Below are positions 6,991-52,059 of a stretch of DNA of 64,000 nucleotides, piece by piece. The number at the start of each line of letters is the position of its first letter. Position 1 is the stretch's first letter. The notes beneath the pieces are model-generated. The model was not told the DNA's origin. It ran no database searches and saw only the letters and a list, made by a program, of their open reading frames with translations. The position numbers and the translations under genes are program-made. This DNA comes from an uncultured Porphyromonadaceae bacterium (GTDB lineage: Bacteria; Bacteroidota; Bacteroidia; Bacteroidales; Muribaculaceae): positions 6,997 through 70,996 of the forward strand of contig CAMWIM010000004.1 of assembly GCA_947174335.1 (NCBI GenBank). The letters run 5' to 3'.

Positions 6991-7012
6991 AGTTATCTTA
7001 GTTTAAAAAATT

Positions 7013-7504: not shown

Positions 7505-10312
7505 TTAGTCAACGTATATTATCTCAGCATTCCCTTTGGACATATTGCTGATAGTGATACCACTTTTTAAATATAATGTATTTAGAGTCGACATACTGCA
7601 ATATAAATCGGTCAGGGCTGTATTCTTTGAGAGATCCAACGTAGTAAGCTTGTTATCCAAACAATACAACTTACTCAGAGCTGTGCAACTTGTTACATCT
7701 AATGAAGTTAATTGATTCATATCGCAATGTAGCTCTGTCAGTGCTTCATTTTTTGATATATTTAATAATGTTAAATTGTTCAAGTAGCATCTTAAAAAAG
7801 TTAGCGCCATATTATTTGAGACATCTAACGTAGACAATTTGTTTTTATCACAGTTCAATTTCGACAGCAGTGTATTCCTTGAGACATCCAAGGAGGAGAG
7901 CTGGTTATCGTTACAGTCTAAGGATTTCAGCATAGTACAATCTGAGACATTCAATATTGTCAACTGATTGCTGTAACACTCTAAATCAATCAGTGCTGTA
8001 TTTCTTGTGATATCCAATGAAGTCAGCTGATTATTACCACATACCAACTTAGTAAGCGATGTATTCTTGAACACGTCCAACATTGTCAATTTATTTAAAT
8101 GACAATCCAACTCCGTCAGCATTGTGTTATTTGAAACATCTAATGTTGTCAACTTATTATTACCGCAATTTAGCTTCTTAAGAGTTGTATTTTTTTTGAC
8201 ATCTAATGATGTCAACTGATTTTTTTCGCAATTCAACTCATTAAGCACTGTATTATTTGACACATCTAATGATGTCAACTTATTAAAGTAACAATTCAAA
8301 TATGTCAGCGCGGTACTGCTTGATACATCCAACGTTCTCAAATCGTTGGTACTGTTGCAATCTAATTTAGTCAGCGATGTACATCCTGAGACATCCAAAG
8401 AGGTCATAGAATGATTAAAACTACAATCCAACTCAATTAATGCTTTAAAACCAGAAACATCTAACGAGGTCAACTTGTTTGAGGAGCACTTCAAGTTAGT
8501 GAGGACTGTATTGTTAGATAAATCCAACGAGGTCAACTGGTTTGAGTAGCATTCCAAATTAGTCAGGGCTGTATTGTTAGATAAATCCAACGATGTCAAC
8601 TGATTATAATAGCAACTTAGATCGTTTAAATTTTTAAAATATTGTATTCCCTCAAGTGATTTAATGCTTTTAAAACCACAAGAGACTCTTGTAACATTTA
8701 ATGCTTCCTTGCCTGAAATGACACCATCTTTATCTTTATCAAAATTACTCAAAACATAACTACGGAAATTTTCATCAGGGAAGGCTATAGTCATATCTGA
8801 AGGAATTGAAAATGTAAACTCTTCCTGGCTAATTTTAATTGAAGTGAAAGCTTTTCCGGTTTTATCTACTATTTGTATAGTAGCGCTACGAGCATCTCCA
8901 TTATTTTCACTTACTAACAAAGTAATTGTTTCTTTTCGGTTTGCTCTTGATTCAACAGTGCTAATCCAACTTTTTACGTCGGTGGGGATTGACAGAGAGT
9001 AGTCGGTATTGGTTTCTATATTGATACTTACTGACCCACCTGTTGTCGGAACTTGATATGTCTCTCCACTTGTTACCTTTAAAAATTCTTCCTCTTTGCC
9101 ATTTCCCTGGTTAATCTCAATTGAGGTGAAAGCGTTACCGTCTTTATCTACTAATTGAATGTGTGAGGTACGGGCAACATCTTTATTCTCCCTAATTAAT
9201 AAAGTGATTGTTTCTTGACGGTGGGTGCGTGATTCAACTTTGCTAACCCAATGTTTATCTTCGTCAGGAATTGAAAGGTCGAAGTCTGTATTTGTTTCGA
9301 GATTGATACTTACGGTTCCACCGGTTTTGGGTACTTGATATGTTGTTCCGCTTGTTACCTGCAAAAAATCTTCTTCGCCAAACGAAATGCTGCTCATCAC
9401 AGTTACCTTACCGTTTGATGCAAGCAAGATGACCTTGTCATATTCGTCAATAGCATCCCCGGTAATAATAGAGATGGTACCTTTTGCTGAATTACGATTA
9501 TTTAATTTTGCTTTGACATTACCCGATGAAATAACCTCCAATTTGAGTCCAACGACGCTTCCTTCAACAACATAGCTGATATTATAGGTCGAATTAGGAG
9601 AAACTGATTTTAGTTCGGCAAGCGTTTGCTCATCAAATTTTATGGTTAACTCTGCTTGACGAGGGAGTGTAAATTTAGTGCCGTCTGACAGAGTAAAGGT
9701 TACTTTTTGAGGGTCTGAGGTGTCAATGTCGTTGAAAACTGCATTTTTACCGTCGGCGGTGCCTTTGCCGAGATTGACCCAGGTTTTGCCACCGTCAGCC
9801 GACATCAACCAGTTGTCTTTGTCAATTTTAAACTCGGGAAGAACAACATCTGATGTTCCGGTAGTACCAACTTTATTCCCATCTTCGCTGAGTATCCATT
9901 CTCCGTTGATAGTCCAATAATAATCTCCTTTTTCATCTTGTTTGATTCCAATAACGGGGGCTGAACCATTAGTGCCATCAGCACCATTGATGCCATTGAC
10001 GCCGTCTTGACCATCTTTACCGTGATAAACCGAGATTGACGGACTTTTGACAAATGCAAATGTATAGCCGACCTCTTTTTCGCCCTCTTTGATCGGAGTA
10101 ACTGAAGTGATAGCATCTCCGTTTTCCATAGCGTTAACCAATGTCTGAATCGATGTGACATTAGTATTCAGTTGTTTGCACTGTTCTTCGAGCGACTTCA
10201 CTCGATTTTCAAGATTTTCAACGCGATTGCTCAATGGTCCGTCGTCATACTTGTCACAAGATGACAATGCGAATAGAGCAACCGCACAAATGGAGAGAAT
10301 AAAATTCTTCAT
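7505..10312 (-). CDS. surface lipoprotein: N-terminal coiled-coil domain + two BACON-like domains + about 17 leucine-rich repeats
   Basis: Lipobox LSSC. Duplicated module YQVPxTGGxVSINxETNTDxxLSIP (BACON-like). Long array of 22-aa LTSLDVSxNTxLTxLxCxxNx repeats. Confidence 0.85.
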   Translation of the reverse strand: MKNFILSICAVALFALSSCDKYDDGPLSNRVENLENRVKSLEEQCKQLNTNVTSIQTLVNAMENGDAITSVTPIKEGEKEVGYTFAFVKSPSISVYHGKDGQDGVNGINGADGTNGSAPVIGIKQDEKGDYYWTINGEWILSEDGNKVGTTGTSDVVLPEFKIDKDNWLMSADGGKTWVNLGKGTADGKNAVFNDIDTSDPQKVTFTLSDGTKFTLPRQAELTIKFDEQTLAELKSVSPNSTYNISYVVEGSVVGLKLEVISSGNVKAKLNNRNSAKGTISIITGDAIDEYDKVILLASNGKVTVMSSISFGEEDFLQVTSGTTYQVPKTGGTVSINLETNTDFDLSIPDEDKHWVSKVESRTHRQETITLLIRENKDVARTSHIQLVDKDGNAFTSIEINQGNGKEEEFLKVTSGETYQVPTTGGSVSINIETNTDYSLSIPTDVKSWISTVESRANRKETITLLVSENNGDARSATIQIVDKTGKAFTSIKISQEEFTFSIPSDMTIAFPDENFRSYVLSNFDKDKDGVISGKEALNVTRVSCGFKSIKSLEGIQYFKNLNDLSCYYNQLTSLDLSNNTALTNLECYSNQLTSLDLSNNTVLTNLKCSSNKLTSLDVSGFKALIELDCSFNHSMTSLDVSGCTSLTKLDCNSTNDLRTLDVSSSTALTYLNCYFNKLTSLDVSNNTVLNELNCEKNQLTSLDVKKNTTLKKLNCGNNKLTTLDVSNNTMLTELDCHLNKLTMLDVFKNTSLTKLVCGNNQLTSLDITRNTALIDLECYSNQLTILNVSDCTMLKSLDCNDNQLSSLDVSRNTLLSKLNCDKNKLSTLDVSNNMALTFLRCYLNNLTLLNISKNEALTELHCDMNQLTSLDVTSCTALSKLYCLDNKLTTLDLSKNTALTDLYCSMSTLNTLYLKSGITISNMSKGNAEIIYVD
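7570..8640 (-). repeat. 66-bp-period coding tandem array (LRR units) inside the LRR gene
   Basis: Recurring gtcaa(c/t)tg.tt / acatc(t/c)aa(c/t)g blocks visible at about 66-bp spacing. Matches the 22-aa protein repeats. Confidence 0.8.
8830..9370 (-). repeat. internal tandem duplication encoding two BACON-like modules
   Basis: Protein segments FLQVTSGTTYQVPKTGG...IEINQG and FLKVTSGETYQVPTTGG...IKISQE are collinear and highly similar. Confidence 0.75.
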
Positions 10313-10645
10313 TATTAAAATAAGATTGGTTCAATGTCCGACCAACACCCACTCGGACTGGTATATACAAAAAAGCGTGGTGCCGAACTAAGTTGCTCGT
10401 TCCACGTCTTGAGGCCTTCGCATTGCCTAACATCAAAGAACAAGCAAAGTAGAAGACCCACGCTGTATGGTATATATAAATATATACACATCAGGTGTCA
10501 CTACTTATGCTTCGTTCGATTGATGTTTATTTTGAAAGTTGCGAAGTTCCAAGACATCAGAACTGAAGCGCGATAGTAACGCTTTATGTTTTATTTAAAC
10601 CATCAAAAATCTCCTCGCTCGGAGGGTTGATGACATCGCAAATTT
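10313..10645 (-). promoter_or_regulatory. structured 5' leader, copy A (promoter to start codon of the LRR operon)
   Basis: The -7 box TAAATTTG is the reverse complement (rc) of 10638-10645. Small hairpin at 10566-10582. Box gttgcgaagtt at 10537-10547. Long hairpin at 10374-10462 with the conserved apex aggccttcgcattgcc at 10411-10426. U-tract is the rc of 10368-10373. Same blocks and order as copies B and C. Confidence 0.7.
10368..10462 (-). terminator. terminator-like long hairpin + U6 inside leader A
   Basis: GCGTGG (10374-79) pairs with CCACGC (10457-62). Inner stem gttgctcgttc/gaacaagcaa. On the minus strand the hairpin is followed by UUUUUU. Confidence 0.6.
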
Positions 10646-10825
10646 ACGACATAATTTTGAAGTAACCAAATAGGTTGCACAAAATACAGTGTTTTACAGG
10701 TCATCAAAATGGTTTATAGCGTGGGCCTTTTTCCTTTGCCACTGCAAAATTAAATGAAATTAATTCAAAAACTATCATCCACTTCATCCATTTTGGGGGT
10801 AGACAAATTCCTTACGAGCTATTAT

Positions 10826-10850: not shown

Positions 10851-10919
10851 GATGTCGTGTTTTGAAATGTTTTGGCACTCACGTTGTTATATAAAAAAAA
10901 AGTATTATCTTTGCGAGTT

Positions 10920-11495
10920 ATGAAATCAAAAGAGCAAATTCTAAAGATTAGAGCGACTGTATTATATATACTGAGTGCATTTCCAAAGGGTATAGACTAC
11001 ATTAAACTTTTTAAGATTTTATATTATGCCCAACAGAAGCATTTGGTATGTTATGGTCGTACTATAATCAACGATAATTTTCAAGCTCGACAAAAAGGTC
11101 CGGTTTGTGGATTTGTACGTAAAGGATTGAAGCTTATTGAAAATTCAAAAAAACTTGAGGATGATTTTTTGATATTTGGTAAAAATATTCAGGTTTCCAT
11201 GGGGAAAGATTGTCAAATTATAAGTTCTCATGAGATGCCGGATATGGATGAATTGTCAGTTTCAGAAAAAAAATGTCTTGATACATTCATTGAAAAATTT
11301 AGAGATATGAATTCTAAAGATGTATCAGATTTTTCACATAAAGATAAAGCATGGGAAAGAGCGTTTAACAGAGCTAAAGATGATCCTCAGCTTAGGGTGA
11401 TGACAATACTTGAAATTGCCGAATCAGGAGGAGCGAATCATAATACATTAGCTTACATTAAAGAGAATCTTGAATTGGATCAATCGTTGAACTAA
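10920..11495 (+). CDS. Panacea/SocA (DUF4065) domain protein, putative antitoxin
   Basis: IKLFKILYYAQQKHL...FQARQKGPV matches the KLxKLLYYA..W..GPV DUF4065 signature. I prefer the ATG at 10920, downstream of the -7 box, to the TTG at 10872. Confidence 0.7.
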   Translation: MKSKEQILKIRATVLYILSAFPKGIDYIKLFKILYYAQQKHLVCYGRTIINDNFQARQKGPVCGFVRKGLKLIENSKKLEDDFLIFGKNIQVSMGKDCQIISSHEMPDMDELSVSEKKCLDTFIEKFRDMNSKDVSDFSHKDKAWERAFNRAKDDPQLRVMTILEIAESGGANHNTLAYIKENLELDQSLN

Positions 11496-15825: not shown

Positions 15826-18489
15826 TCAGTCGATATATTTGATTTCGGTCTTTGAATTGATAAACTCGATTCCGCGGTTGATATTTATACCGTTAATTCT
15901 GAATCCGGTCTTCAGATACAAGGTCTTGAGCGACGGCATTACGCACCATAGATCGGTCAGCTCCGTGTTTTTAGAGAGGTCTAATGTCGTGAGCTGATTT
16001 CCGTTACAGTTCATCATATATAACTCGGTGTTGTTCGAGAGATCAAGCGTTGTGAGTTGGTTTTCAGAACAATCAATATCAGCAAGTGCTGTATTTTTTG
16101 TAAAATTGACCGAGGTCAATTTATTGTCGTAGCAATACAGGTGGGTCAAAGTTGTAAGAGGGGATAGATCTAATTCGGTTAACTCATTATGATAACAATG
16201 TAGCTCGGTTATCTTTGTGTTCTGAGAGATATCTAACGACGTTATATCGTTATATGAGCAGTCAAAATAGGTTATCTCAGGGCAGTGAGAGCTGTCGAGC
16301 GAAATAAGCATGTTTTTGTGACAGTTCAGATATGTCAGTGACGGGCAATTTGCAAGATTCAATGAAAGAATCTGATTGTCGGCGCACAATATCTGGGTAA
16401 GTTCGGGACAATTTGGAATTTTAAGTGAGGTCAGCAGATTTGATTCGCACCACAACGATTTGAGTGCAGTGCAGTTAGATACGTTTAGCGAATACAGCTT
16501 GTTGTTAGAGCAAGACAGCGAGGTCAATGCCTGACACTTTGATACATCCAACGAATTCAGACGGTTGCCCGAGCATGATAACGAAGTCAGAGCCGGGTTA
16601 TTAGATAGATTCAGTGATGTGAGGTGATTGCCGTAACACTCCAGCTCGGTCAGAGCCGGGCAATTAGAAAGATTCAGAGTGCCGATCAGATTGTCAGAAC
16701 AGTCTAAATAGGTCAGAGCTTTGGAATTGGATAAATCTATTGAAATTAAACGGTTGTTGTAGCATTTCACACTGGTTAACTCCGGACAACAAGCGAGGTT
16801 GAGCGTTATTAGGTCGTTGCCATAGCAATCCAGGTCGGTCAGGCGGGGGCAGTTTGAGAGGTCAAGCGATGTCAGGTAGCAGCTGCACGACAGTGTGGTC
16901 AAAGCCGGGCAATAAGATAAATCTAAAGTTGTCAAATTGTTAGCCGAGCAATCAAGATATGTCAGTGCTGCACATTTTGACAAATTCAGATATGGAATCT
17001 CATTTGTGCGACATTTCAATTCAGTCAGTTCGGCGCAGTCCGAAATATCAAGCGATGCAATTAGATTGTTTTCGCAATTCAAGCTTGTCAATGCTTTATT
17101 TTCAGAGAGATTGAGAGTGGTTATTTCGTTATTTGAGCAATTGAGAACTTTCAGATTTGAGAAATATTGAATACCCTCAAGCGATTTAATGGTGTAAATC
17201 GATCGTTTTGATACGTCGAGTGTCGTTACCGCTAACGCCTCTTCTTTAGAGAGAGTCCCGTCGTGGTTGGTGTCTAAATCTTCCAACACATATCTTCTAA
17301 ATAACACATCGGGGAAAGCCGATTGCATATTTGACGGAATCTCGGTGTTAAGCGATTGACCCTCTTGGCTGATTTGTATCATTGCCAATGTTATCCCATC
17401 GATGTTTGTTAGATACACTTTGGTTGTGCGGGTGACATCGTTGTTTGGTGAAATATTCAGTGTGATAGTCTCTTGCCTGATTGCTCGCGATGTAACCTCG
17501 CTGATCCATCCTTGGGCATCTTCAGGAATAGAGACCGAATAATCGGTGTTGGTTTCGATGGTAAATTCTATAGTCCCGCCCTCATTCTCGACGTTATAAA
17601 AAGCTTCAGAAGTGATATGTATAAATTCGTCTTCTTCAAACGACAAACTCTTTGATACCGAAGTAGAGCCGTTTGAAGCGATCAAGATTAACTTGTCAAG
17701 TTCGCCAATTGTTTCTCCGGTTTGAATGGTGATTGTTCCTTTTGCTGATTCGGCATCTTCAATCTCAGCCTTGATATTGCCCGATGTTACAACCTCAACA
17801 TTCAGCCCTTTGGTTTCACCCATAATGGTATAGGCTACTCTGATTGTCGCGTTAGGTTCGACCGGAATATTATTGTCAACGTCGTCAATGTTGAATGTGA
17901 TGGTTAATTCTGGCTGGCGGGGTATTATAAGTTTCTCGCCATTTGACAACGTAAAGACAACCTTCTCTGCATCAGACATATCAATGTCGCTGAAAAGCAC
18001 ATTGTTGCCTTGACCGAGATTGATCCAGCTTTTACCATTATCGAGGGAAACATACCAATTTTTTTTCTCAATCTTAAGTGTCGGTAGAACAGCAAATTCC
18101 GATCCGTAAGGCATGACCTTATTACTGTTGCTGTCAAGTAGCCAACCGTCGTTTAAAGTCCAGTAATAAATGCTGTCACTATCTTGCTTGATGCCGATTG
18201 AGGGTGATGTCGAGCTATTCCCGTAATAGATTGAGATAGGCTTATTTATAGCGAATGCAAAAGTATAGCCGACCTCTTTATCATCTTCAATTAGTGGCGA
18301 AATAGAAGTGATAAGGTCGTTATCATGCAAAATGTCAACCAACGCTTGTAAGGCGGTAATATTGGAATTTATCTGATTACACACCTCATCAAGCTGCTCA
18401 TCAGGATAGCCGGGCTCCTCTTTGTCATCATTACAACCGACTAAAACCATGATTGTTATCAAGAAAAGTGTGTATATAAATTTTTTCAT
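15826..18489 (-). CDS. surface lipoprotein, paralog of 7505..10312 (one BACON-like module + LRR array)
   Basis: Lipobox LVGC. Same N-terminal domain (ITSISPL.EDDKEVGYTFAF). About 66-bp coding repeats at roughly 15900-17160. Short-leader promoter (rc of 18522-18529 = TAACTTTG). Confidence 0.85.
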   Translation of the reverse strand: MKKFIYTLFLITIMVLVGCNDDKEEPGYPDEQLDEVCNQINSNITALQALVDILHDNDLITSISPLIEDDKEVGYTFAFAINKPISIYYGNSSTSPSIGIKQDSDSIYYWTLNDGWLLDSNSNKVMPYGSEFAVLPTLKIEKKNWYVSLDNGKSWINLGQGNNVLFSDIDMSDAEKVVFTLSNGEKLIIPRQPELTITFNIDDVDNNIPVEPNATIRVAYTIMGETKGLNVEVVTSGNIKAEIEDAESAKGTITIQTGETIGELDKLILIASNGSTSVSKSLSFEEDEFIHITSEAFYNVENEGGTIEFTIETNTDYSVSIPEDAQGWISEVTSRAIRQETITLNISPNNDVTRTTKVYLTNIDGITLAMIQISQEGQSLNTEIPSNMQSAFPDVLFRRYVLEDLDTNHDGTLSKEEALAVTTLDVSKRSIYTIKSLEGIQYFSNLKVLNCSNNEITTLNLSENKALTSLNCENNLIASLDISDCAELTELKCRTNEIPYLNLSKCAALTYLDCSANNLTTLDLSYCPALTTLSCSCYLTSLDLSNCPRLTDLDCYGNDLITLNLACCPELTSVKCYNNRLISIDLSNSKALTYLDCSDNLIGTLNLSNCPALTELECYGNHLTSLNLSNNPALTSLSCSGNRLNSLDVSKCQALTSLSCSNNKLYSLNVSNCTALKSLWCESNLLTSLKIPNCPELTQILCADNQILSLNLANCPSLTYLNCHKNMLISLDSSHCPEITYFDCSYNDITSLDISQNTKITELHCYHNELTELDLSPLTTLTHLYCYDNKLTSVNFTKNTALADIDCSENQLTTLDLSNNTELYMMNCNGNQLTTLDLSKNTELTDLWCVMPSLKTLYLKTGFRINGININRGIEFINSKTEIKYID

Positions 18490-18725: not shown

Positions 18726-20390
18726 ATGACTGAAAAAGAATTACAAACATATTTGCTAAAGAGATTTCCAAAGGAAGACTCGGGATGTGATTGGAAAGAA
18801 ATGAAAAATCTAAAAAATTCATTTGCCAACGATCCTCATAAAGATGTTATATCTTATCTTTCAGGTATCTCAAATATGGAAGGTGGGTATCTTGTTATTG
18901 GAGTAAAAGACGGAACTTTGGATATTGTAGGTACCGATTTGTCAAAATTCAATTTTAATTCTACTTCAGTAATATATAAAATGATTGAGATGTGTCCCAA
19001 TCTTCCGTCTGAAGGTCTTTTTGTTGAGGAGTATGTAACTTCTGATACTGATAAGACGGTGTGGATTATCAATATACCTAAACATCTACCGCGCCGCCCT
19101 GTATTTGCTCATAAGAAAGCGTGGCAAAGGATAGGGGACTCCCTTGTTGAGCTTACATCGGAACGTGAGAATGTCATATTGAACGAAGAGATCTTGCACT
19201 ATGATTGGTCTGCGGAAATCGTGGAGGATGCTGATTACACTGATCTTGATGTTTATGCAATTCAAAAAGCGTTGGATGGTTATTGTGAACGTTATCCTAA
19301 GAGAGCAGAAGAAGCTCGAAATTGGAGTATAGAAGTCTTTTTGGACAAAGCAAAGATTACAAAAAGCGGGAAAATAACTCGTACGGCATTACTTTTGCTT
19401 GGAAAAGAAGAGTCGGTTCATTATCTAAATCATCCTGCTGAGATGGTATGGAAACTTCAGACTGGGGAGGAACGAGCTGCCCAGATATTCTATCCGCCAT
19501 TCTTACTTACCGCTGTAAATCTACGAGCAGAAATAAGAAATTATCAAATAAAGATATTCCCCTCAAATGCATTGCTCCCATCTCCCGTGCCAAAGTATGA
19601 TCAGCGTACTCTTCTTGAAGCACTTCATAATTGTATTATGCATCAGGATTATACAAAGAAAGAACGTATAGTAGTGACCGAGACGGCTGATAGTGTGAGG
19701 TTTCAAAATGCAGGATCATTCTTTGAAGGGCGTTACTCAGACTATATTGAAGGCGAAAAGTCTCCTACAAAATATAGAAATGAATTTCTAAAAACGGCAA
19801 TGCTAAATCTTAATATGGTTGATAGTCAAGGGTTTGGAATTCACGATATGTTTGAACATCAGCGAAATCGTTATCTGCCTATGCCTGACTTCGAAAGATC
19901 CACAGAATCTCATGTTATTTTGGAAATACCCGGACAAGAAATTAATAAGGAATATTCTACTGCGTTGATGGAAAATTCAACACTTGATTTGACAACGGTA
20001 TTTCTTCTTGATAGGGTACAGAGAAATAAACCGATTAGTAAAGAGGCAAGAGATAGATTAAGGGAATTAAATCTGATAGAGGGTCGCCATCCTCATATTT
20101 TTATTAGTAGAAAGGTTGCTCAGCTTACTAATATGGAAGCTGAATATACCGATCTCAAGGGTTTTGACGATGAATATTACAAAGATCTTATTTTAAAATC
20201 AATTGGAGATCACAAAAGGCTTCGCAGAGATAAAATTGATAAGCTTTTGTATGGAAAACTTCCAAGTGCAATGAACGATCGACAAAAGAAGAATCATGTT
20301 GATTATCTTTTGAAAAGCCTTCGTAAGGCTGGAAAAATACACGTCGGGTCAAATAAGAACTGGGAGCTTGGTCCTGGGCAAGAGATATAA
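18726..20390 (+). CDS. AlbA_2 (Schlafen-like) + ATPase-like domain protein / putative DNA-binding regulator
   Basis: EDSGCDWKEMKN...SFAN...GGYLVIGVKDGTLDIVG matches the AlbA_2 signature. -7 box tatttttg at 18680-18687. Confidence 0.7.
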   Translation: MTEKELQTYLLKRFPKEDSGCDWKEMKNLKNSFANDPHKDVISYLSGISNMEGGYLVIGVKDGTLDIVGTDLSKFNFNSTSVIYKMIEMCPNLPSEGLFVEEYVTSDTDKTVWIINIPKHLPRRPVFAHKKAWQRIGDSLVELTSERENVILNEEILHYDWSAEIVEDADYTDLDVYAIQKALDGYCERYPKRAEEARNWSIEVFLDKAKITKSGKITRTALLLLGKEESVHYLNHPAEMVWKLQTGEERAAQIFYPPFLLTAVNLRAEIRNYQIKIFPSNALLPSPVPKYDQRTLLEALHNCIMHQDYTKKERIVVTETADSVRFQNAGSFFEGRYSDYIEGEKSPTKYRNEFLKTAMLNLNMVDSQGFGIHDMFEHQRNRYLPMPDFERSTESHVILEIPGQEINKEYSTALMENSTLDLTTVFLLDRVQRNKPISKEARDRLRELNLIEGRHPHIFISRKVAQLTNMEAEYTDLKGFDDEYYKDLILKSIGDHKRLRRDKIDKLLYGKLPSAMNDRQKKNHVDYLLKSLRKAGKIHVGSNKNWELGPGQEI

Positions 20391-21972: not shown

Positions 21973-22346
21973 GGCTGTTTATGGTGCCTTCGGACTCCCC
22001 TCGTTGGCATTTATCAGATTATAAAAAGAGAGCGTGAGAGCCGTACCTGCTGCTCGTTCCACAATTGGAGGCCTTCGCATTGCCCGGTTAGTTGAACGAG
22101 CAACTGCAGAAGCCTCACGCAGAATATGCCTATACAATAACATATGGTACTCACGCACCAATTGTTATTGGAATGTACATATCCACAAGACATCTACCGT
22201 TGCTACAATCCTGACTAACCTAAGAAAGTTGCGAAGTTTCCAATTGTCAAGAAAGAGCGTCGAGTAAACGCTATCTAAAAATGTTAGCCGACCCTCCCGC
22301 ATTTCCCATACCAAGGCTTCTGCGTTTAGATCTGCGGTGCAAAGTT
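21973..22346 (-). promoter_or_regulatory. structured 5' leader, copy B
   Basis: The -7 box TAACTTTG is the rc of 22339-22346. Small hairpin at 22255-22271. Box gttgcgaagtt at 22227-22237. Long hairpin at 22031-22119 with apex aggccttcgcattgcc at 22068-22083. U-rich tract is the rc of 22022-22030. Confidence 0.7.
22022..22119 (-). terminator. terminator-like long hairpin + U-tract inside leader B
   Basis: GCGTGAG (22031-37) pairs with CTCACGC (22113-19). Inner stem ctgctcgttc/gaacgagca. Followed on the minus strand by UCUCUUUUU. Confidence 0.55.
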
Positions 22347-22591
22347 AGATAAATTTTATTATTCCACAAATATTAAAATTTAAAATTATTGGTAAATAAA
22401 TATATTTAAGGTGGGATATTGTGTCATTTTTCGCGAACTATTTTGAAAATATAAAAAGAATGTTGTAACTTTGTGGTCGAAAATAGAATATCGCACTTTT
22501 TAATTCGATAACTCAAGGGGTCTTCGCCTTTCACGGCCGAGATTCTTTATTTTTTTACTATTTACGAAAAAACAAAAAAACAGATAAAACT

Positions 22592-45710: not shown

Positions 45711-46403
45711 TTATTTAGGAGGTAGAATCTTAACAATGTGATGAAGCTCAATGTGCTCTTTCTTTGCGGCATTTAAAGCATATTTCAGTATGCGCATAAT
45801 GCCTGGGCTTCGTCTATGAATAGTCGATGGACTTAACCCCTGAAGATAGTTATTGATAGTGACATCACGAGTTAAAATATCTCTAATAATGGTTCCGTAA
45901 AATGGGTCTCTTAGAATTGACCTTGCTATAAATGCAGACTTATCATCCTCATTAAGTTCTTTATAAACATACCCAAAACAACTTAAATACCAGGAACTAT
46001 AATATTGAAATACCAGACCGAGCTGCTTAGATGTTTTTATTTGGTTTTCACCATACTTACGGAGTGCGTATTCCGTTTGACTCTTACAATAATGAGGAAA
46101 TAATCGACCAATTTCTTCAAATGAATAGCCGGGATTATCATTATCAGAAAGGATAGAACACATCTCTATTTCAGACGCAGAGAATGAGCTGCTTTGAGTC
46201 ATATCCTCTGTGCTAATTGGAGGGTAGTCCCAAGAAATAATGAAATAGAGAAATTCCTCGTAAGGAATATCGATAATACTCTTAACGTATTTTTTAAGCA
46301 TAGATATAGGGATGTTGTATGAATAATCATCCAACATCTTATCATTTACTTGATTCTCCAACGAACGGTAAAAGAAGGATTCTATCTTGCCTTGGTTATT
46401 CAA
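45711..46403 (-). CDS. hypothetical protein, last gene of the six-gene operon (possible HTH region)
   Basis: 8-nt overlap with the upstream gene. GYSFEEIGRLF...TEYALRKYGENQIKTSKQLGLV looks helix-turn-helix-like. No family recognised. Confidence 0.5.
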   Translation of the reverse strand: MNNQGKIESFFYRSLENQVNDKMLDDYSYNIPISMLKKYVKSIIDIPYEEFLYFIISWDYPPISTEDMTQSSSFSASEIEMCSILSDNDNPGYSFEEIGRLFPHYCKSQTEYALRKYGENQIKTSKQLGLVFQYYSSWYLSCFGYVYKELNEDDKSAFIARSILRDPFYGTIIRDILTRDVTINNYLQGLSPSTIHRRSPGIMRILKYALNAAKKEHIELHHIVKILPPK

Positions 46404-47382
46404 TAGACATCAGCGTTTTAAGTTGGGCATATAGTTTTTTCAACTCAGTATAAAGCCCCATATCGCTCAAATTTTCAAGAATAGCCGTGCTCTCGTTGGA
46501 TACCGCAATATTAAAGTTACGGATTTTGGCAGTGAGATTAGCTATTTTACTATCGCTCTCCACGAGTTCAACTGCCTCATCTAGTGACATTGTCTCATTG
46601 ATAAAGCCATTGATCGCTTCATCCGTGACCTCACTTTCAGAGCCGACAATCTTACCGACTTTTCTTAACTCACGAGCATCGGCAAATTTCCCGTCTTTGA
46701 TTCTTTCAAGAATGGTTTCTTTAATGGCTAACAGGGGATAGTTTTCATCTGCTCTTTGTATTGCGCCATTTTTAACAAACTCGTGATAGTAGCTCCATTT
46801 ATCACGCACGAGATCATCGTTTTGCTCCATAAGATCATAAGTGGCAATGTACTTATGAGCAGCAGAACGAGTAAGACCTAACTCATCAGCGATTGCATCA
46901 ACCTTTTTACGTGATGTCGTGATGCGCTTACGTAAATAAGCTGCTTGCTCAAAAGGAGACCAAGGAGTTTTCCCAATTATGTGCATGGTGCCAAGCAGAG
47001 AAAAAATCTGGTCAGCGGTTACTGATGAAGGAAGAAGGACTGCTCTAATGCTAGACCATTTAATGGGATCCTCATGCACGAGCAGGCGGTATGCAGCTAA
47101 ACGGCTGTTGCCTTCTAAAACTACACTATCTTTAACGAAGATAGGCTCAATGAGACCGCCATTAACCCTGATACTGTTTTTCAACTCCTTTACATGGTCA
47201 AGGGACTGCATCTTCTGCTCAATCTGCTCCTGTGTGGGATTATCACCAAATTCGGATTCGATAATGCTATTGATACGCGGGTTTTCAGGATAGTATTGTA
47301 GATCAACAATGCTGATGTCTGTTTCTACCGCCTCAACGATGCTGTTTTCAATGCGTATAAATTTCTTAGTCTCTTCCATCAT
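46396..47382 (-). CDS. ParB/Srx-like N-terminal domain protein (paralog 2)
   Basis: YYPENPRINS ... LKNSIRVNGGLIEPIFV...VVLEGNSRLAAY (ParB N-domain Arg-patch region). GKTPWSPFEQAAYL parallels GPRAWDPYSKAKYL in paralog 1. Confidence 0.7.
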   Translation of the reverse strand: MMEETKKFIRIENSIVEAVETDISIVDLQYYPENPRINSIIESEFGDNPTQEQIEQKMQSLDHVKELKNSIRVNGGLIEPIFVKDSVVLEGNSRLAAYRLLVHEDPIKWSSIRAVLLPSSVTADQIFSLLGTMHIIGKTPWSPFEQAAYLRKRITTSRKKVDAIADELGLTRSAAHKYIATYDLMEQNDDLVRDKWSYYHEFVKNGAIQRADENYPLLAIKETILERIKDGKFADARELRKVGKIVGSESEVTDEAINGFINETMSLDEAVELVESDSKIANLTAKIRNFNIAVSNESTAILENLSDMGLYTELKKLYAQLKTLMSIE

Positions 47383-48845
47383 TATTCAATGTTCAGTATG
47401 TTTCTTATAAGTTGAGCGAAACTGTAGTCCGCTTTTTTATGGTATTCAGAAATCGTGGTGTCTCCTTGCGCTAAAAAAGCGGCTTGTTGTTTTGCATACA
47501 ATAAGACATCGATCCATTCATCAATGCTATTCTCGACAATAAGATTGTAAATGTGACAATCTTTTTTTTGAGATAGGCGATGTATCCTATCCTGCGCTTG
47601 CAGATAATCATCTAGATTGAAACCTCGGTCATAAAAAATAGCATGATTAGCATTCGTCAATGTTAATCCCTCTTTTGCCGATTGGGGGGTGGCAAAGAGA
47701 ATCTGAGCATCACCAGATTTGAAAGCATTAACAGAATGGTTTCTGCTTTCCATATTCATTTTCCCCGTAATCTTTACCGAACGGAGAGATTTATATTTCT
47801 TAGAAAGTCTATCAATGTTATCCGTGAAAATGCTCCATACGATTACGCTTTCCTTATTCTCTACTATGGAATGAATTAACTCATCGAGTTTTGCTTCTTT
47901 GGCAGAAATAGCATCGTAAGAATCATCTAAAAGCGATGGATTCGAAGCGATTTGAACTAAGCGGAGTAATCGTTTAATTGCTTCTGGAGATTCATCAAGG
48001 ATGGTACTATCACCTTTAACAACGGATATTTGCATTTCCTTTCTTACTGTGTCATACATTTGGTGTTGTCGTTCCTCAAAGGGGACCGCAATTGTGTGAA
48101 CATACTTACTTGGTAAAGTAATGATCCCACTATTTTTTGTTTCTCGAACAGAGAAGGATCTAATCTTATCAAATATTGATGATACGCTATTTTCAAAGTA
48201 AGCCACCCTACTTTCATTATAACCTAAATCGTTGGATAAGTCACATTGGGTCTTAAATTCATTGAAATCCTCACCAAGACTCTTTCCCTGGTCTAAAAAG
48301 AATATTTGTGCCCAAATATCATACGGACGATTCGCAACTGGGGTGCCGGTCATTATAACTCTACGCTTAAAGTAAGGTGAAAGTTCAAAGAAATCTTTAG
48401 TAAGTTTCGAGTCGGGATTCTTAATCTTTGTAGATTCATCTATTATTATGCCAACGTTCCTAGTTTGAAGAAATAGCTTTATTCTCTCTTTTTCTCCGCT
48501 AATTGTTTCAAAATTGGTAACAATCAATCTTGTCGGACTATTAAACACGAAGAAGTTATCCCCTTTTCTGGAAGTCAAAATGTCGGGACGTAAGGATGTA
48601 TGGTTTTTAATCTCTGAGAGCCAATTAAATACTAATGTCTTTTTTGTAACTATTATAACGGTGTCTATAGAACTCTGAAGCCAGTAAAGAAGAATATCAA
48701 TCGCAATTTTAGTCTTTCCGAGACCTTGCTCATGGAAGATTGCACCATACTCTAAATCTTTAATGGCATCCACTGCCTCAGTTTGATACTTAAAGGCATC
48801 AAACTTAGTGGAGTAATCAAATATTTCATCGTAAATTACAGACAT
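47382..48845 (-). CDS. SNF2-family helicase/translocase (core only, 487 aa)
   Basis: GLGKT (I), IIIDESTKIKN (II), MTGTPVANRPYDIW (III), QAQDRIHRLSQ (VI). Confidence 0.85.
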   Translation of the reverse strand: MSVIYDEIFDYSTKFDAFKYQTEAVDAIKDLEYGAIFHEQGLGKTKIAIDILLYWLQSSIDTVIIVTKKTLVFNWLSEIKNHTSLRPDILTSRKGDNFFVFNSPTRLIVTNFETISGEKERIKLFLQTRNVGIIIDESTKIKNPDSKLTKDFFELSPYFKRRVIMTGTPVANRPYDIWAQIFFLDQGKSLGEDFNEFKTQCDLSNDLGYNESRVAYFENSVSSIFDKIRSFSVRETKNSGIITLPSKYVHTIAVPFEERQHQMYDTVRKEMQISVVKGDSTILDESPEAIKRLLRLVQIASNPSLLDDSYDAISAKEAKLDELIHSIVENKESVIVWSIFTDNIDRLSKKYKSLRSVKITGKMNMESRNHSVNAFKSGDAQILFATPQSAKEGLTLTNANHAIFYDRGFNLDDYLQAQDRIHRLSQKKDCHIYNLIVENSIDEWIDVLLYAKQQAAFLAQGDTTISEYHKKADYSFAQLIRNILNIE

Positions 48846-49255
48846 AAGATCTCGGTGTTAGTGTTGTCTGATAACAGATGAAACGTTACATCCTTTACAT
48901 TATGCTTTTCAATGAGTAAATTAACGTAGTTGAAAAGAGAGCAGAATGCGATGAATGGTACGCATAATACTATGTGGCGTTCTCCGTCAAACAGTTTTAC
49001 CTCCTCAATATAAGAAAGTATTTGGTCTTGAGTGTGTGGATTTATCAGGTCGTTTTCGGTCTTTGCTTCACCTATAATAATAGCTTTAGGATCTTTATAG
49101 AATACATCCGGATAGAAGCCCCCAACTACACGACTAGTACGAGTGTTGTAATTGTCAAGATCGGCTTCAATGAAGTCTACACAACAATACGGTATAGTTT
49201 CAAGATATGAAACTATACTCCTTACAAGTTGTTTGTGTAGCCTACTTTCAGCCAT
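48836..49255 (-). CDS. small PD-(D/E)xK nuclease-fold protein
   Basis: FYPDVFYKDPKAIIIGEAKT gives PD-x12-E-A-K, the classic restriction-endonuclease-like motif. Overlaps both neighbouring genes. Confidence 0.55.
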   Translation of the reverse strand: MAESRLHKQLVRSIVSYLETIPYCCVDFIEADLDNYNTRTSRVVGGFYPDVFYKDPKAIIIGEAKTENDLINPHTQDQILSYIEEVKLFDGERHIVLCVPFIAFCSLFNYVNLLIEKHNVKDVTFHLLSDNTNTEILCL

Positions 49256-50282
49256 TTTGGATTTCGCGGATATTTTCTAGTATGATATTCAGTTGGCTTT
49301 CGAGCGATTGAAGATGATAGACTCGTTCACTAGCTTCACTACTATCATCAGTTGCTAATCTCTTAATTTCAGATATGGAGGGTTCGCTTGAGATGAGTTT
49401 CTTGTATAGTTGAGAGACTAATACATAGTATGGGTATTTGCTCAAGTCGGCAGAGTCTAATTCTGCCGCAAAAATTATTTTTTCGGCTTCTCCCAGATTC
49501 GTATGTAGGAATTTCGCTCTGGCTTCATCATTGGCTAAGACCTTAGGCAGAATACGGACCCTTTGGGCAGTGTCTATATTACCTTCGGCAACCCACTCGG
49601 CAAAAATTGATAAATCAAACCCCGCCTTTCTTATGCTGTATTGGATTGCGTTGTTCTGAAATTCATGGAATTTAGAAAACTCCCGAATATCAAAACGCCT
49701 GTTTCGTTTTGAACTGACATAAGGTCGGTAGTATGTCTCCATATACTGGTAAGCAGCTATACTTCGCTGAATTTCTGTTTTGCCTCCTCCGCATAAGGAG
49801 ATTATAGTATTGAGAGGCATGTGCTCTACCTCACTCAATTGCCAAAGATATTTGGCTTTCGAGTAAGGATCCCAAGCTCGAGGGCCAACGAGATGAGATT
49901 GCAATCGAACCTCATGCTTTTTCTCATTCTCAAGTCGGTCATAAACAATCGCAGGGATTCTATCCCATAGTCCTGAACTATCATTCTTTTGGAACTCTTT
50001 ATAAATCTGAAGACGAGTATTGCCTTCGATAGCAACATACGTTCCATCTTCTTCTAAAGAAACTATAATGGGATGTATAATACCGCCACATTTCTTAATA
50101 GAATCTCTCAAAGATGTATAAGAGGTGGTAGCATCCTGCGTATTTGAGCTATTAGATAACGCAAGAGCAATATGCACCGAGGCAATCTCCTCCCTTGGAT
50201 AGTTGTCAAGATAATTCTTGATACGCGGATTGTCTATATCAAGGCGTATCAGCGATATGTCTAAATTCTCGTGACGTGGCAT
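49248..50282 (-). CDS. ParB/Srx-like N-terminal domain protein (paralog 1)
   Basis: LIRLDIDNPRIKN ... LRDSIKKCGGIIHPIIV...YVAIEGNTRLQIY. Confidence 0.7.
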   Translation of the reverse strand: MPRHENLDISLIRLDIDNPRIKNYLDNYPREEIASVHIALALSNSSNTQDATTSYTSLRDSIKKCGGIIHPIIVSLEEDGTYVAIEGNTRLQIYKEFQKNDSSGLWDRIPAIVYDRLENEKKHEVRLQSHLVGPRAWDPYSKAKYLWQLSEVEHMPLNTIISLCGGGKTEIQRSIAAYQYMETYYRPYVSSKRNRRFDIREFSKFHEFQNNAIQYSIRKAGFDLSIFAEWVAEGNIDTAQRVRILPKVLANDEARAKFLHTNLGEAEKIIFAAELDSADLSKYPYYVLVSQLYKKLISSEPSISEIKRLATDDSSEASERVYHLQSLESQLNIILENIREIQNG

Positions 50283-50284
50283 AA

Positions 50285-51673
50285 CTATTCAGATTTAAGC
50301 CATAGATTCGGGTTTACCAAATCTCTTAGGCGAAGATTAAAGAGTCGTAGTAATTCTTTCTTATGGGATGAGAAGCGTTCCAAAAATGAGATAATGGTTT
50401 TTAAGGGCAATGATATTTTTTTATCAGTATAATAACCATTATTAAAGTCAACTATAAACTCCTCATAAGATTTTATAGGAGTCACTTTTAATCCTAGAGT
50501 ACGTTCCTCCCAAAAAGTTTGGTTTCTATAACAAAATTCCCAAAAGGACATTTTTTTGTAAAAAGCAGGCTGGTTACACCAGCGTGCAATCTGAACATAA
50601 ATGTTTTGGAGTTCATGATTGTGGTAATCTTCATGGCGCATAATATAGCCTAGACAGCCATATTTCATAAGTACTTCTATACGATAAAATATTTCCTTAA
50701 TATCTTTAAGCAATAAATCATCATCGTTAGAATTTAACTTATAACCGCAGAAAAGATAAAATTTTGTTTCTTTTTTATTATATCGTTTCCAAATTTTTAA
50801 TGCTTTCTCAATTTTGGGCCTATCAGACCAATTGTCAAAAGCAAAAATATAATCGCCATGATATTTACATTGTGATAACAACTCTGCAATTTCTTCTCCA
50901 TATGGACTTTCAGCTAAGATACGTTCATCCAAACCTTGCCTAAATTGAAAAGGTCGTCTTGTTTCCATTAACTCCTTTAGAAGTGGTCGCCATATTGAAG
51001 GAGAAGAAGCCAAAAAGTTATCATCCCATAAATAAATATAAGGACGTTTTAGTCTTCCTTTTTCATCTTTTTCATCACTCAAAAACCATTGAATTTTAGA
51101 ATAAGGAAGGATTCTATTCTCAAAACGATTTACACAAAATGGGCATTTGCGGAAACACCCTCTGGTAAGGAATCCAATAGAGTACTGAAGATAATCTTTA
51201 TAATACGATTTCTTTCGTCCTGCTGCAATTCGCTTTTCTATGTATGGAACGTATAGATCATAGAATGGCATCTGATGAGCCATTGAAATGCCCATCTCTT
51301 TGCCATCTCTCATATTTGGATAGCGATTCAAGAATGGGTCATTTTCAAGTTGCATCATATCTACAGAACGATATTGCCTAAATCCCATTTCGTTTTCATT
51401 TAATGCGTAAAACCCAGTACCACCCCAGCGAAAACGAGATTCTTTTCCTTTCTTTTCCTCCTGACTTCTATTAAAAAACTTAGGATCTTTGGTAAATGAA
51501 AAAACCTTACTAATATATATAAGATGAAATTCCGAGATGTCTTCATTCTCAGATTCAATTAATCTAAATTCGATATTATGATCATTAAGAAAACCAGCAA
51601 GTTTAAGCAATGCGAGGTTAGGATGGCGGGTTCCGCCATCCAATAGATCTGCATCGACTAAACCAATTTTCAT
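50285..51673 (-). CDS. radical SAM protein with an N-terminal Rossmann/B12-binding-like domain
   Basis: TRGCFRKCPFC is CxxxCxFC, with the aromatic residue expected before the third Cys. The N-terminus MKIGLVDADL...NLALLKLAGFL resembles class-B radical SAM N-domains. Confidence 0.7.
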   Translation of the reverse strand: MKIGLVDADLLDGGTRHPNLALLKLAGFLNDHNIEFRLIESENEDISEFHLIYISKVFSFTKDPKFFNRSQEEKKGKESRFRWGGTGFYALNENEMGFRQYRSVDMMQLENDPFLNRYPNMRDGKEMGISMAHQMPFYDLYVPYIEKRIAAGRKKSYYKDYLQYSIGFLTRGCFRKCPFCVNRFENRILPYSKIQWFLSDEKDEKGRLKRPYIYLWDDNFLASSPSIWRPLLKELMETRRPFQFRQGLDERILAESPYGEEIAELLSQCKYHGDYIFAFDNWSDRPKIEKALKIWKRYNKKETKFYLFCGYKLNSNDDDLLLKDIKEIFYRIEVLMKYGCLGYIMRHEDYHNHELQNIYVQIARWCNQPAFYKKMSFWEFCYRNQTFWEERTLGLKVTPIKSYEEFIVDFNNGYYTDKKISLPLKTIISFLERFSSHKKELLRLFNLRLRDLVNPNLWLKSE

Positions 51674-52059
51674 TATGTATCTTTGAACTATGCAATTTTA
51701 CATTCATCGACCCCCTGATGAATATATAGATACAAAAAAAGCGCAGGATCCGTACTTGTTACTCGTCCTGCTGCTAAAGGCCTTCGCATTGCCCGAAATA
51801 GTAGAACGAGCAACGCAGAGCCTACGCCGTATGAATATATTATACACCATAGTAGACTATATTATAGATATAATCAACCAATGGGTACACATCATACCCG
51901 AAGACATCTACAGTTGCTTCATTCTCGACTATTTCTTAAGAGGTTGCGAAGTTCTTAGCAGCCAAGAATTAAGCGAAAGTAAACGCTTTTGAAATATGTT
52001 TTAAACCCACCCATCCGACGGATAATTTCGTCATCGGCGTAGATTTCACTGCAAAATTA
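51674..52059 (-). promoter_or_regulatory. structured 5' leader, copy C (in front of the six-gene operon)
   Basis: The -7 box TAATTTTG is the rc of 52052-52059. Small hairpin at 51972-51987. Box gttgcgaagtt at 51943-51953. Long hairpin at 51741-51827 with apex aggccttcgcattgcc at 51778-51793. U7 is the rc of 51734-51740. Confidence 0.7.
51734..51827 (-). terminator. terminator-like long hairpin + U7 inside leader C
   Basis: GCGCAGG (51741-47) pairs with CCTACGC (51821-27), with a G.U pair only if read on the minus strand. Inner stem gttactcgt/acgagcaac. Followed on the minus strand by UUUUUUU. Confidence 0.6.

Follow-up and report, generated by a model that had tools for sequence, protein, structure and literature searches.

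The 64,000-nucleotide (nt) window analysed here (contig CAMWIM010000004.1 of an uncultured Porphyromonadaceae bacterium, order Bacteroidales, positions 6,997 to 70,996 of the forward strand) contains three copies of a structured sequence module, all on the minus strand and each lying directly ahead of protein-coding genes. Copy A precedes the gene for a lipoprotein with DUF4988, leucine-rich repeat (LRR) and BACON domains, copy B precedes genes for a small lipoprotein and an HD protein, and copy C precedes a six-gene operon that encodes an SNF2 helicase related to ZorD and DpdE. The three repeats are copies of a large, widespread and uncatalogued family of Bacteroidales RNA leaders. In each leader, two mutually pairing hairpins probably decide whether the surface or defence genes behind them are transcribed.

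Three copies of one module in the window

Two sequences mark the module: a 16-mer, GGCAATGCGAAGGCCT, which occurs exactly three times in the window, always on the minus strand, and a box, AACTTCGCAAC, which also occurs exactly three times (Table 1). Allowing up to three mismatches in the 16-mer returned no match beyond these copies (0.29 expected by chance), and fuzzy searches of the window with four other conserved blocks revealed no fourth copy. An earlier note on this DNA, made from the letters alone, had described the same order of blocks in all three minus-strand copies, and direct reading of the three regions agrees with it: a -7 promoter box of the form TAnnTTTG lies where the note had placed it and is followed by a small hairpin, a hairpin of 87 nt, a tract of five to seven U residues and 50-60 nt to the ATG. 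Other parts of that description had to be revised. The box had been regarded as a free single-stranded element; it is instead the 9-nt apical loop of a second long hairpin, termed U1. The first part of what had been called an AT-rich variable spacer is a conserved sequence, GUCAAGAACAAAGCAACGGUAGAUGCCC, that forms the 3' strand of U1, and the variable spacer follows it. Finally, the 16-mer, described as invariant, is identical in the three window copies but varies in the wider family.

Architecture of the leader

The module is about 265-310 nt long. On the RNA, the promoter is followed by a hairpin P0, the block GACAUAU, hairpin U1, a variable spacer hairpin, the block CAUAUC, hairpin U2, the U tract, about 63 nt of unconserved leader and the ATG. 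The two long hairpins have matched lengths and share one plan. Each begins with a basal helix, which an internal loop separates from an upper helix (UUGUUCUUGAC/GUCAAGAACAA in U1, UUGCUCGUUC/GAACGAGCAA in U2); above these, both strands contribute 8-9 nt to a large internal loop, and a 4-bp ministem with a loop of 9 nt forms the tip. U1 is a homologue of the terminator hairpin U2. In U1 the loop with its ministem, GAAA[CUUCGCAAC]UUUC, holds the box, while the corresponding apex of U2, GGGC[AAUGCGAAG]GCCU, is the 16-mer. Ministems and loop flanks are conserved beyond the need of pairing, and conserved unpaired blocks (GACAUAU, AUGGG.AUGUGUAU and CAUAUC) stand at the hairpin bases and junctions.

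Within U1 of copy C the order is an alternative small hairpin P1 (AGCGUUUACUUUCGCU), a linker, segment a, the apical loop with the box, segment b and a 3' strand designated post-b/X3. Segment a lies just 5' of the U1 ministem and its partner a' just 3' of the U2 apex; the 5' and 3' strands of U2 are designated Y and Z. In the predicted folds of 99 members, the spacer makes about 19 pairs with itself on average. An open reading frame (ORF) of 100 amino acids lies on the plus strand wholly within the copy C leader, antisense to it; most likely it only reflects the palindromic nature of this sequence and is no gene.

Distribution of the family

The family was studied by pattern scans and anchored analyses. 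Scanning the 16-mer against 185,579 species genomes yielded at least 120 matches. Among the genome matches listed, 94 of 120 are complete elements, with the box 99-263 nt upstream of the 16-mer. The titled member records among them come from Bacteroidaceae, Prevotella, Segatella, Xylanibacter, Paraprevotella, Muribaculaceae, Paludibacteraceae, Parabacteroides and Porphyromonadaceae, and all are Bacteroidales except two contigs binned as Oribacterium. These two, from a bin of Oribacterium sp. (Firmicutes; our loci L156 and L165, CAVDKC010000210.1 and CAVDKC010000242.1), carry typical family members and are probably Bacteroidales contamination or mis-binning. The hits left over are chance matches in G+C-rich genomes. 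Further members were found in IMG/VR viral contigs and in metagenomes. In the plasmid collection two Phocaeicola plasmids match, with nothing annotated under the match in the P. dorei record that was examined; one plasmid copy is 2 kb away from an ssb gene. The phage collection gave no match. The copy B leader is about 80% identical to a copy in a contig of an uncultured Bacteroides sp. (L132), and similarity between loci stops at the module borders. Loci fetched by the 16-mer show only one variant of it, a T-to-C change at the last base, in a set that is biased by the search pattern. Since this first sample was fixed on the 16-mer, a loop-independent sample was collected from metagenomes with a pattern outside both loops, AAGCAACRGTAGATGYY in the U1 3' strand, which gave 39 members with both loop cores.

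Some copies are truncated. Two in genomes (L222 and L231) share a single breakpoint within the box (...|TTCGCAAC); among viral contigs, L011 and L054 are cut inside Y, and L046, L088 and L092 just before the apex, beside a divergent promoter. L011, L088 and L091 have the same a'/b' segments and are versions of one locus. The hairpins may be hot spots of recombination or insertion.

No Rfam 15 family matches anywhere in the window, consistent with the earlier note's failure to recognise a named motif, or in 16 element-carrying loci from diverse Bacteroidales, and a permissive Rfam search of copy C gave only noise (E >= 0.49). Literature searches on sequence strings, Bacteroides leaders, attenuators and structured-RNA surveys found no description, although one may exist outside the searchable literature; nor is the element described in the 200 of 408 supplementary files searched from a human-microbiome catalogue of structured RNAs.

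The two apical domains covary

Complementarity between the apical domains of U1 and U2 extends over about 34 nt, such that a, loop and b pair with b', loop and a'. The earlier note had proposed a pairing of 7 nt between box and apex; the pairing itself holds, although it is only the centre of a much longer one. In the 39 loop-independent members, the 7-nt loop cores are complementary in six allele forms: UCUCGCA:UGCGAGA (17 members), UUCGAAC:GUUCGAA (7 members), the window allele CUUCGCA:UGCGAAG (6 members), UCUUGCA:UGCAAGA (4 members and one more with a G.U), UCUAGCA:UGCUAGA (2 members) and UCUGGCA:UGCCAGA (2 members). These six complementary alleles therefore prove the pairing of box and apex. 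Within the UCUNGCA:UGCNAGA series (L238-L357, metagenome) each of the four Watson-Crick combinations occurs at the middle position of the core.

The segments that flank the cores are hypervariable, with 93 distinct 8-mers of segment a among 101 members. The family mean for a:a' is 7.19 of 8 positions paired, compared with 4.52 for shuffled partners (maximum 4.77 in 200 shuffles), and for b:b' it is 7.36 of 8 compared with 4.86. In a pair model of 93 sequences, compensatory changes occur at 8 of the 9 pairs of the a:a' helix (helix 4). In the only two multi-copy loci available (three copies in the window and two in L157), the copies share one kissing allele and differ in their a and b segments. 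A formal count was made on the 93 sequences with a model of 51 pairs comprising P1, the top of U1, U2, a:a' and the core. The observed values, 92.5% of cells paired and 525 double-change cells, compare with 82.9% and 153 after shuffling and were reached in none of 500 shuffles, and slid controls of the same model were 37-49% paired. Compensatory changes were present at all five pairs of the U1 top helix and at 4 of 6 pairs of P1, while U2 helices 6 and 9 are 94-96% paired with compensatory changes at 7 of 9 and 7 of 10 pairs. These figures support the covariation of the terminator hairpin that the earlier note saw between the window copies.

The mismatches also reveal the strand. The two hypervariable helices have G.U to A.C ratios of 38:8 and 38:13, which places the structure on the gene strand, as an RNA transcribed toward the genes. 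The earlier note had argued this from three individual positions, of which the two in copy C (51744/51824 and 51761/51811) are correct as given, while the pair in copy A was off by one and lies at 10398/10442.

Promoter, terminator and coupling to a gene

Of 102 members, 94 carry a TAnnTTTG box at a distance of 50-200 nt upstream of the conserved box; the background frequency is 0.10 per 150 nt. Past the terminator and ahead of the ATG, such a promoter box is present in 5 of 85 members, which is the background level, and none of the three window copies has a minus-strand -7 box between U tract and ATG. Since there is no second promoter, the downstream genes would be expressed only by read-through, as the earlier note had concluded. 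A run of at least four T follows the U2 stem in 92 of 103 members. A simple consensus terminator scanner does not call U2 because the apical domain exceeds its loop limit. The family thus shows sequence features of a terminator attenuator, namely an upstream promoter, a covarying stem with a U tract, and a conserved alternative pairing that takes one strand of the terminator. Moreover, 74 of 86 members (86%) have a same-strand ORF of at least 80 amino acids whose start lies 20-200 nt beyond the U tract, compared with 37% at random positions, and the distance from U tract to ORF is tightly distributed (median 63 nt, quartiles 51-75). On the antisense strand, a promoter box in or just downstream of the element was found in at most 5 of 96 members, again the background level. 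A leader peptide was considered and rejected, as short ATG frames near P1 were only occasional when member sequences were inspected by eye. In the whole window, counting both strands, TAnnTTTG occurs 109 times, compared with 60 +/- 7 in shuffles, an excess consistent with a Bacteroides-type promoter vocabulary, which marks the organism as a member of the Bacteroidota.

Alternative helices and predicted folds

The 3' strand of U1 can pair with the 5' strand of U2 in a likely antiterminator helix, X3:Y, of 16 pairs. This helix is 89% paired, with 44 double-change cells against 19.9 in shuffles and a cis-versus-shuffled score of 6.58 against 6.25 +/- 0.04, so that its covariation is weak but significant. 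The start of Y is, in addition, complementary to the P0 5' strand, with a family-wide cis-versus-shuffled score of 6.48 against 5.94 +/- 0.05. The antiterminator, which the earlier note had considered as one option for the contact of box and apex, would be formed mainly by the U1 3' strand and the transcript 5' end with the terminator 5' strand; the loop-loop contact probably serves as nucleation. The basal helix of U1, GGCGUUUACU with GGUAGAUGCC, comprises 10 pairs (88.9% paired compared with 83.7% shuffled) and competes with the small hairpin P1.

The predicted fold of the module is very stable (z = -5.4 to -6.5). For 99 members, a prefix containing only U1 is predicted to fold as a long hairpin; once Y is present, the minimum free energy (MFE) fold pairs Y with the U1 3' strand and joins both apical domains, and in the full-length MFE fold the terminator stem is nearly absent (mean of 0.3 pairs). 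RNAalifold likewise gives the extended fold. In the window copies, the two hairpins sum to -79.4, -86.4 and -61.6 kcal/mol, compared with -93.1, -95.3 and -73.4 kcal/mol for the extended folds. These energies therefore suggest that the terminator is a local, kinetically accessible fold and the read-through fold the ground state. The cognate apical duplexes alone reach -30.7, -29.6 and -23.2 kcal/mol, and non-cognate U1/U2 duplexes among the three copies only -13 to -16 kcal/mol.

Downstream genes and neighbourhood in the window

Among 69 downstream proteins scanned against Pfam, 8-9 LRR proteins, of the BspA type and others, form the largest class, and the majority lack any Pfam domain. A hydrophobic N-terminus is present in 58 of 84 downstream proteins. 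Other products include DNA methylases, PAPS-reductase-like proteins, LytTR regulators and outer-membrane proteins, and many of the downstream units are single genes. The genes behind the leader are diverse accessory genes for LRR surface proteins, lipoproteins and defence.

The copy C operon looks like an uncharacterised defence-type system. Its first gene encodes a protein of 462 amino acids that has no Pfam match and carries a CxxxCxxC motif (GCFRKCPFC) as in radical SAM enzymes; genes 2 and 5 give weak matches to the PADLOC candidate PDC-M38A; and the SNF2 helicase, most similar to ZorD/DpdE, is gene 4. Housekeeping genes such as rbfA, greA and a miaB-like gene flank each leader-controlled unit. 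A gene with a SocA/Panacea antitoxin domain adjoins the copy A unit, and one for a Schlafen/AlbA_2 protein with a RecG-C-like HATPase domain also adjoins leader-controlled units. Because such defence-like genes adjoin the leader units amid housekeeping genes, the arrangement suggests that the leaders mark small accessory islands. The window encodes a second DUF4988-LRR-BACON surface protein (887 amino acids), a paralogue of the copy A gene product; the region upstream of its gene is only 237 nt long and has no leader copy.

Table 1. Positions of the leader copies, their parts and neighbouring genes in the window
Feature	Position	Strand	Remarks
Copy A, whole module	10369-10646	-
Copy A, -7 promoter box	10639-10646	-	TAnnTTTG
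Copy A, hairpin U1	10489-10596	-
Copy A, box	10538-10548	-	core 10540-10546
Copy A, spacer	10473-10488	-	short
Copy A, hairpin U2	10375-10472	-
Copy A, U2 apex (16-mer)	10412-10427	-
Copy A, U tract	10369-10374	-
Copy A, ATG	10312	-
Copy A, downstream gene	7505-10312	-	DUF4988-LRR-BACON lipoprotein
Copy B, whole module	22023-22347	-
Copy B, -7 promoter box	22340-22347	-	TAnnTTTG
Copy B, hairpin U1	22179-22286	-
Copy B, box	22228-22238	-	core 22230-22236
Copy B, spacer	22130-22178	-
Copy B, hairpin U2	22028-22129	-
Copy B, U2 apex (16-mer)	22069-22084	-
Copy B, U tract	22023-22027	-
Copy B, ATG	21972	-
Copy B, downstream genes		-	small lipoprotein and HD protein
Copy C, -7 promoter box TAATTTTG	52052-52059	-	Bacteroides-type, TAnnTTTG match
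Copy C, P0 hairpin region, transcript 5' end	52014-52045	-	5' strand CUACGCCG complementary to base of terminator 5' strand CGGCGUAG
Copy C, hairpin U1	51894-52001	-	local fold -26.1 kcal/mol
Copy C, box	51943-51953	-
Copy C, kissing core 1, CUUCGCA	51945-51951	-	in U1 9-nt apical loop; covaries with core 2
Copy C, hypervariable segment a, GCUGCUAA	51955-51962	-	pairs with a' UUAGCAGC, 51770-51777
Copy C, hypervariable segment b, UAAGAAAUAG	51929-51938	-	pairs with b' UACUAUUUCG, 51794-51803
Copy C, variable spacer	51839-51893	-	predicted own hairpin, brings X3 beside Y
Copy C, hairpin U2, terminator stem	51741-51838	-	hairpin proper 51741-51827; Y 51804-51838; Z 51741-51769; local fold -37.1 kcal/mol
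Copy C, U2 apex (16-mer) GGCAAUGCGAAGGCCU	51778-51793	-	4-bp ministem and 9-nt loop with kissing core 2, UGCGAAG
Copy C, U7 tract	51734-51740	-	directly after U2 stem
Copy C, rest of 5' untranslated region (UTR)	51674-51733	-	60 nt to ATG of six-gene operon; unconserved, without promoter box
Copy C, six-gene operon	45711-51673	-	with SNF2 helicase related to ZorD/DpdE
100-amino-acid ORF in copy C leader	51690-51992	+	antisense to leader
SocA/Panacea antitoxin-domain gene	10872-11495	+
Schlafen/AlbA_2 protein gene	18726-20390	+	RecG-C-like HATPase domain
Second DUF4988-LRR-BACON gene	15826-18489	-	paralogue of copy A gene

Discussion

Leaders that end in a terminator are a known kind of regulator. 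The present family and its architecture are absent from Rfam 15, from the RefSeq plasmid record examined and from the searchable literature; in this architecture, a portable promoter-leader cassette holds two homologous hairpins, which pair with each other by means of a kissing core that covaries and of flanks specific to each copy. In the reading that we favour, every copy is a transcribed cassette, complete in itself, that attenuates transcription in cis. This reading draws on the architecture, the covariation and the strand, on the promoter and terminator counts and on the association with an ORF downstream. In the mechanism that we propose, transcription would start a few bases after the TAnnTTTG box, and the RNA would form P0 first, then U1, the spacer hairpin and finally U2, which together with the directly following U tract would constitute an intrinsic terminator. 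Read-through would be set by competition for Y. Pairing of Y with Z would produce the terminator (helix 3:4), while pairing of Y with X3/post-b and the P0 5' strand would produce the antiterminator (helix 2:3), U1 itself representing helix 1:2; in the antiterminator state the freed 5' strand of U1 could fold into P1. The apical contact would consist of a 7-bp loop-loop kiss between two copy-specific segments of 8-9 nt, and this kiss, together with the spacer hairpin, would nucleate a strand exchange from the two-hairpin, terminating form to the extended, read-through form, in effect an intramolecular version of antisense-RNA pairing.

Several points weigh against this interpretation. Termination, its partial or conditional nature, the control of read-through and the order of folding are steps that we infer from sequence. 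About 10% of members have no clear U tract (among them L054, L136, L186 and L147; for example ...CCACGTTTGAAC) while the fold is otherwise intact, and in these the fold may have a role beyond termination. Shuffle controls can also be exceeded by related sequences that have no structure at all. Two cross-pairings of the alternative fold, linker:Z-top and P1-5':Z-base, show no cis-specific covariation, so that the extent of this fold is uncertain and a fully extended version was rejected. The read-through fold is predicted for almost every member, in which case the terminator would be only a kinetic trap or would depend on a helper. Finally, the downstream genes have no pathway in common and so give no pointer to a signal. 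Since the terminator covaries strongly and yet is not the predicted ground state, the decision would be kinetic, depending on polymerase speed or pausing factors, or else a factor would stabilise the two-hairpin form; no candidate helper or binding protein was found. Because the downstream gene set is diverse, our best guess for the trigger is not a metabolite specific to each gene but some global input by which the kinetic partition is shifted. This could be the speed of RNA polymerase, the levels of nucleoside triphosphates or alarmones, an RNA chaperone, or an RNA-binding protein that acts on U1 or on the kissing complex.

A riboswitch-like or protein-responsive sensor, in which docked U1 and U2 and the conserved junctions form a binding site that chooses between terminator and antiterminator, is possible, though we consider it less than likely. 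It would account for the conserved unpaired blocks at the hairpin bases, for ministems and loop flanks conserved beyond pairing need and for the matched lengths of U1 and U2, and the strong covariation of a terminator that is not the MFE fold suggests a stabilising agent. However, compensatory changes in the loop cores argue for a constraint on RNA-RNA pairing and not for a sequence read-out, a candidate protein is missing, and the 69 downstream proteins show no metabolic theme; the association with one pathway or transport function that marks a metabolite riboswitch was not found among them. A stand-alone gene for a structured small RNA (sRNA) of about 265-310 nt, acting in trans or otherwise, with its position before genes secondary or with a dual function, seems unlikely. 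The discrete unit bounded by a promoter and a strong terminator, the very stable predicted fold and the confinement of homology to the module are all what such a gene would show, and the single kissing allele seen in each of the two multi-copy loci would fit a shared partner in trans. Against this, 86% of members are followed by a promoter-less same-strand ORF at a tight distance (interquartile range 51-75 nt), and the variable segments pair intramolecularly, leaving little free seed sequence. Such an RNA may still be a second role of the module, although the fixed distance to these ORFs argues for control in cis.

It is also doubtful that the module is primarily a processing or stability element, for example a rod of about 100 bp serving as an RNase III substrate or 5' stabiliser, or that it mediates processive antitermination in the manner of put/EAR RNAs. 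An extended imperfect duplex as the predicted ground state, the position of the copy C module at the head of a six-gene operon and the members without a U tract speak for such roles. Against them, the terminator stem with its U tract is conserved and shows covariation, a large number of the downstream units consist of one gene only, and no likeness in sequence or structure to the antitermination RNAs in Rfam was found. Least credible of all, in our estimation, is an element that works as DNA, either as the inverted repeat of a recombinase (an invertible or attachment site) or as a single-stranded DNA hairpin such as attC or a conjugative single-stranded promoter. The module is a long inverted repeat dispersed as a discrete unit; truncated copies with breakpoints within the hairpins occur in viral and mobile-element contigs; and the plasmid copy close to ssb would also suit this explanation. 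However, the mismatches are strongly biased to G.U on the sense strand, where the template strand would have A.C, the arms maintain pairing by compensatory change and not by identity, and a double-stranded promoter upstream and a U tract downstream are found in about 90% of members. A DNA inversion switch was likewise rejected: the repeats do not enclose the promoter, conserved positions differ between the arms, which also contain G.U-type mismatches, and no recombinase gene is consistently adjacent to the elements.

The cis-acting attenuator, if correct, would place a major uncatalogued layer of gene control ahead of many accessory genes in at least Bacteroidaceae, Prevotellaceae, Muribaculaceae, Paludibacteraceae and Parabacteroides; this 64-kb window has three copies. 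The human and animal gut is dominated by Bacteroidales, whose surface proteins and defence systems influence colonisation, recognition by the immune system and resistance to phages. A covariance model of the module would improve the annotation of thousands of genomes. A more speculative extension, which we regard as quite improbable, is that these RNA switches have a built-in barcode: the a and b segments would make the hairpins of each leader recognise only each other, and the kissing-seeded strand exchange would make the switch bistable or history-dependent. For example, feedback by a terminated leader RNA could be confined to nascent transcripts from the same locus, or a genome-wide factor could read the shared kissing core. 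Should this prove true, gut Bacteroidales would have, besides their DNA-inversion switches, an RNA-based means of turning surface and defence genes on or off locus by locus. In the same speculative vein, genes new to a genome could recruit the module as a portable regulatory unit. The design of the leader itself, in which an antisense pair within one molecule combines a covarying kissing core with copy-specific flanks, is a natural counterpart of the orthogonal RNA switches built by synthetic biologists.

Comparison with known systems

The FopS/GibS sRNAs of Bacteroides thetaiotaomicron resemble the present family in being multicopy, with a canonical promoter and an intrinsic terminator. FopS RNAs are 65-70 nt long and have a single-stranded seed (R1), and their consensus structure is stated to be deposited in Rfam (PMC11697453). 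The two are not identical, as the element described here is 265-310 nt long, almost fully paired, located in a 5' UTR and without a match in Rfam. The leaders of Bacteroides capsule operons that are controlled by UpxY, a NusG-like protein, are also long 5' leaders that control elongation into an accessory surface locus; in contrast to them, our element is not followed by upxY or upxZ, has its own terminator and two-hairpin architecture and has no invertible promoter.

The pairing that we propose is closer to that of plasmid antisense systems. As in CopA/CopT of plasmid R1 and RNAI/RNAII of ColE1, it would proceed in two steps, a loop kiss followed by progression of the helix through interrupted upper stems, and the U1 loop contains a YUNR-like UUCG. 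Here, however, it would be intramolecular, with 9-nt loops, a 7-bp core and hypervariable, copy-specific internal loops of 8-9 nt at its flanks, and its output would presumably be termination and not inhibition of translation or of primer formation. In the antisense attenuation of pT181, pIP501 and pAMbeta1, and in the synthetic attenuators derived from it, loop kissing decides whether a terminator forms in the nascent leader, and specificity is set by the sequence of loop and upper stem. Our element shares the covarying loop-loop recognition, but it carries both partners on one transcript and precedes chromosomal accessory genes instead of plasmid replication functions. An antisense RNA of the pT181 type acting in trans was rejected, with antisense promoters at background (5 of 96) and the complementary partner lying upstream on the same strand.

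In its overall logic the element corresponds to trp-type attenuators, T-box leaders and riboswitch platforms, all of which are 5' leaders with an intrinsic terminator and mutually exclusive helices 1:2, 2:3 and 3:4 that require read-through for expression. It differs from them in having no recognisable leader peptide, tRNA- or ligand-binding domain or Rfam match, and above all in its helices 1:2 and 3:4, which are homologous hairpins of 90-110 nt whose apical domains are complementary to each other.

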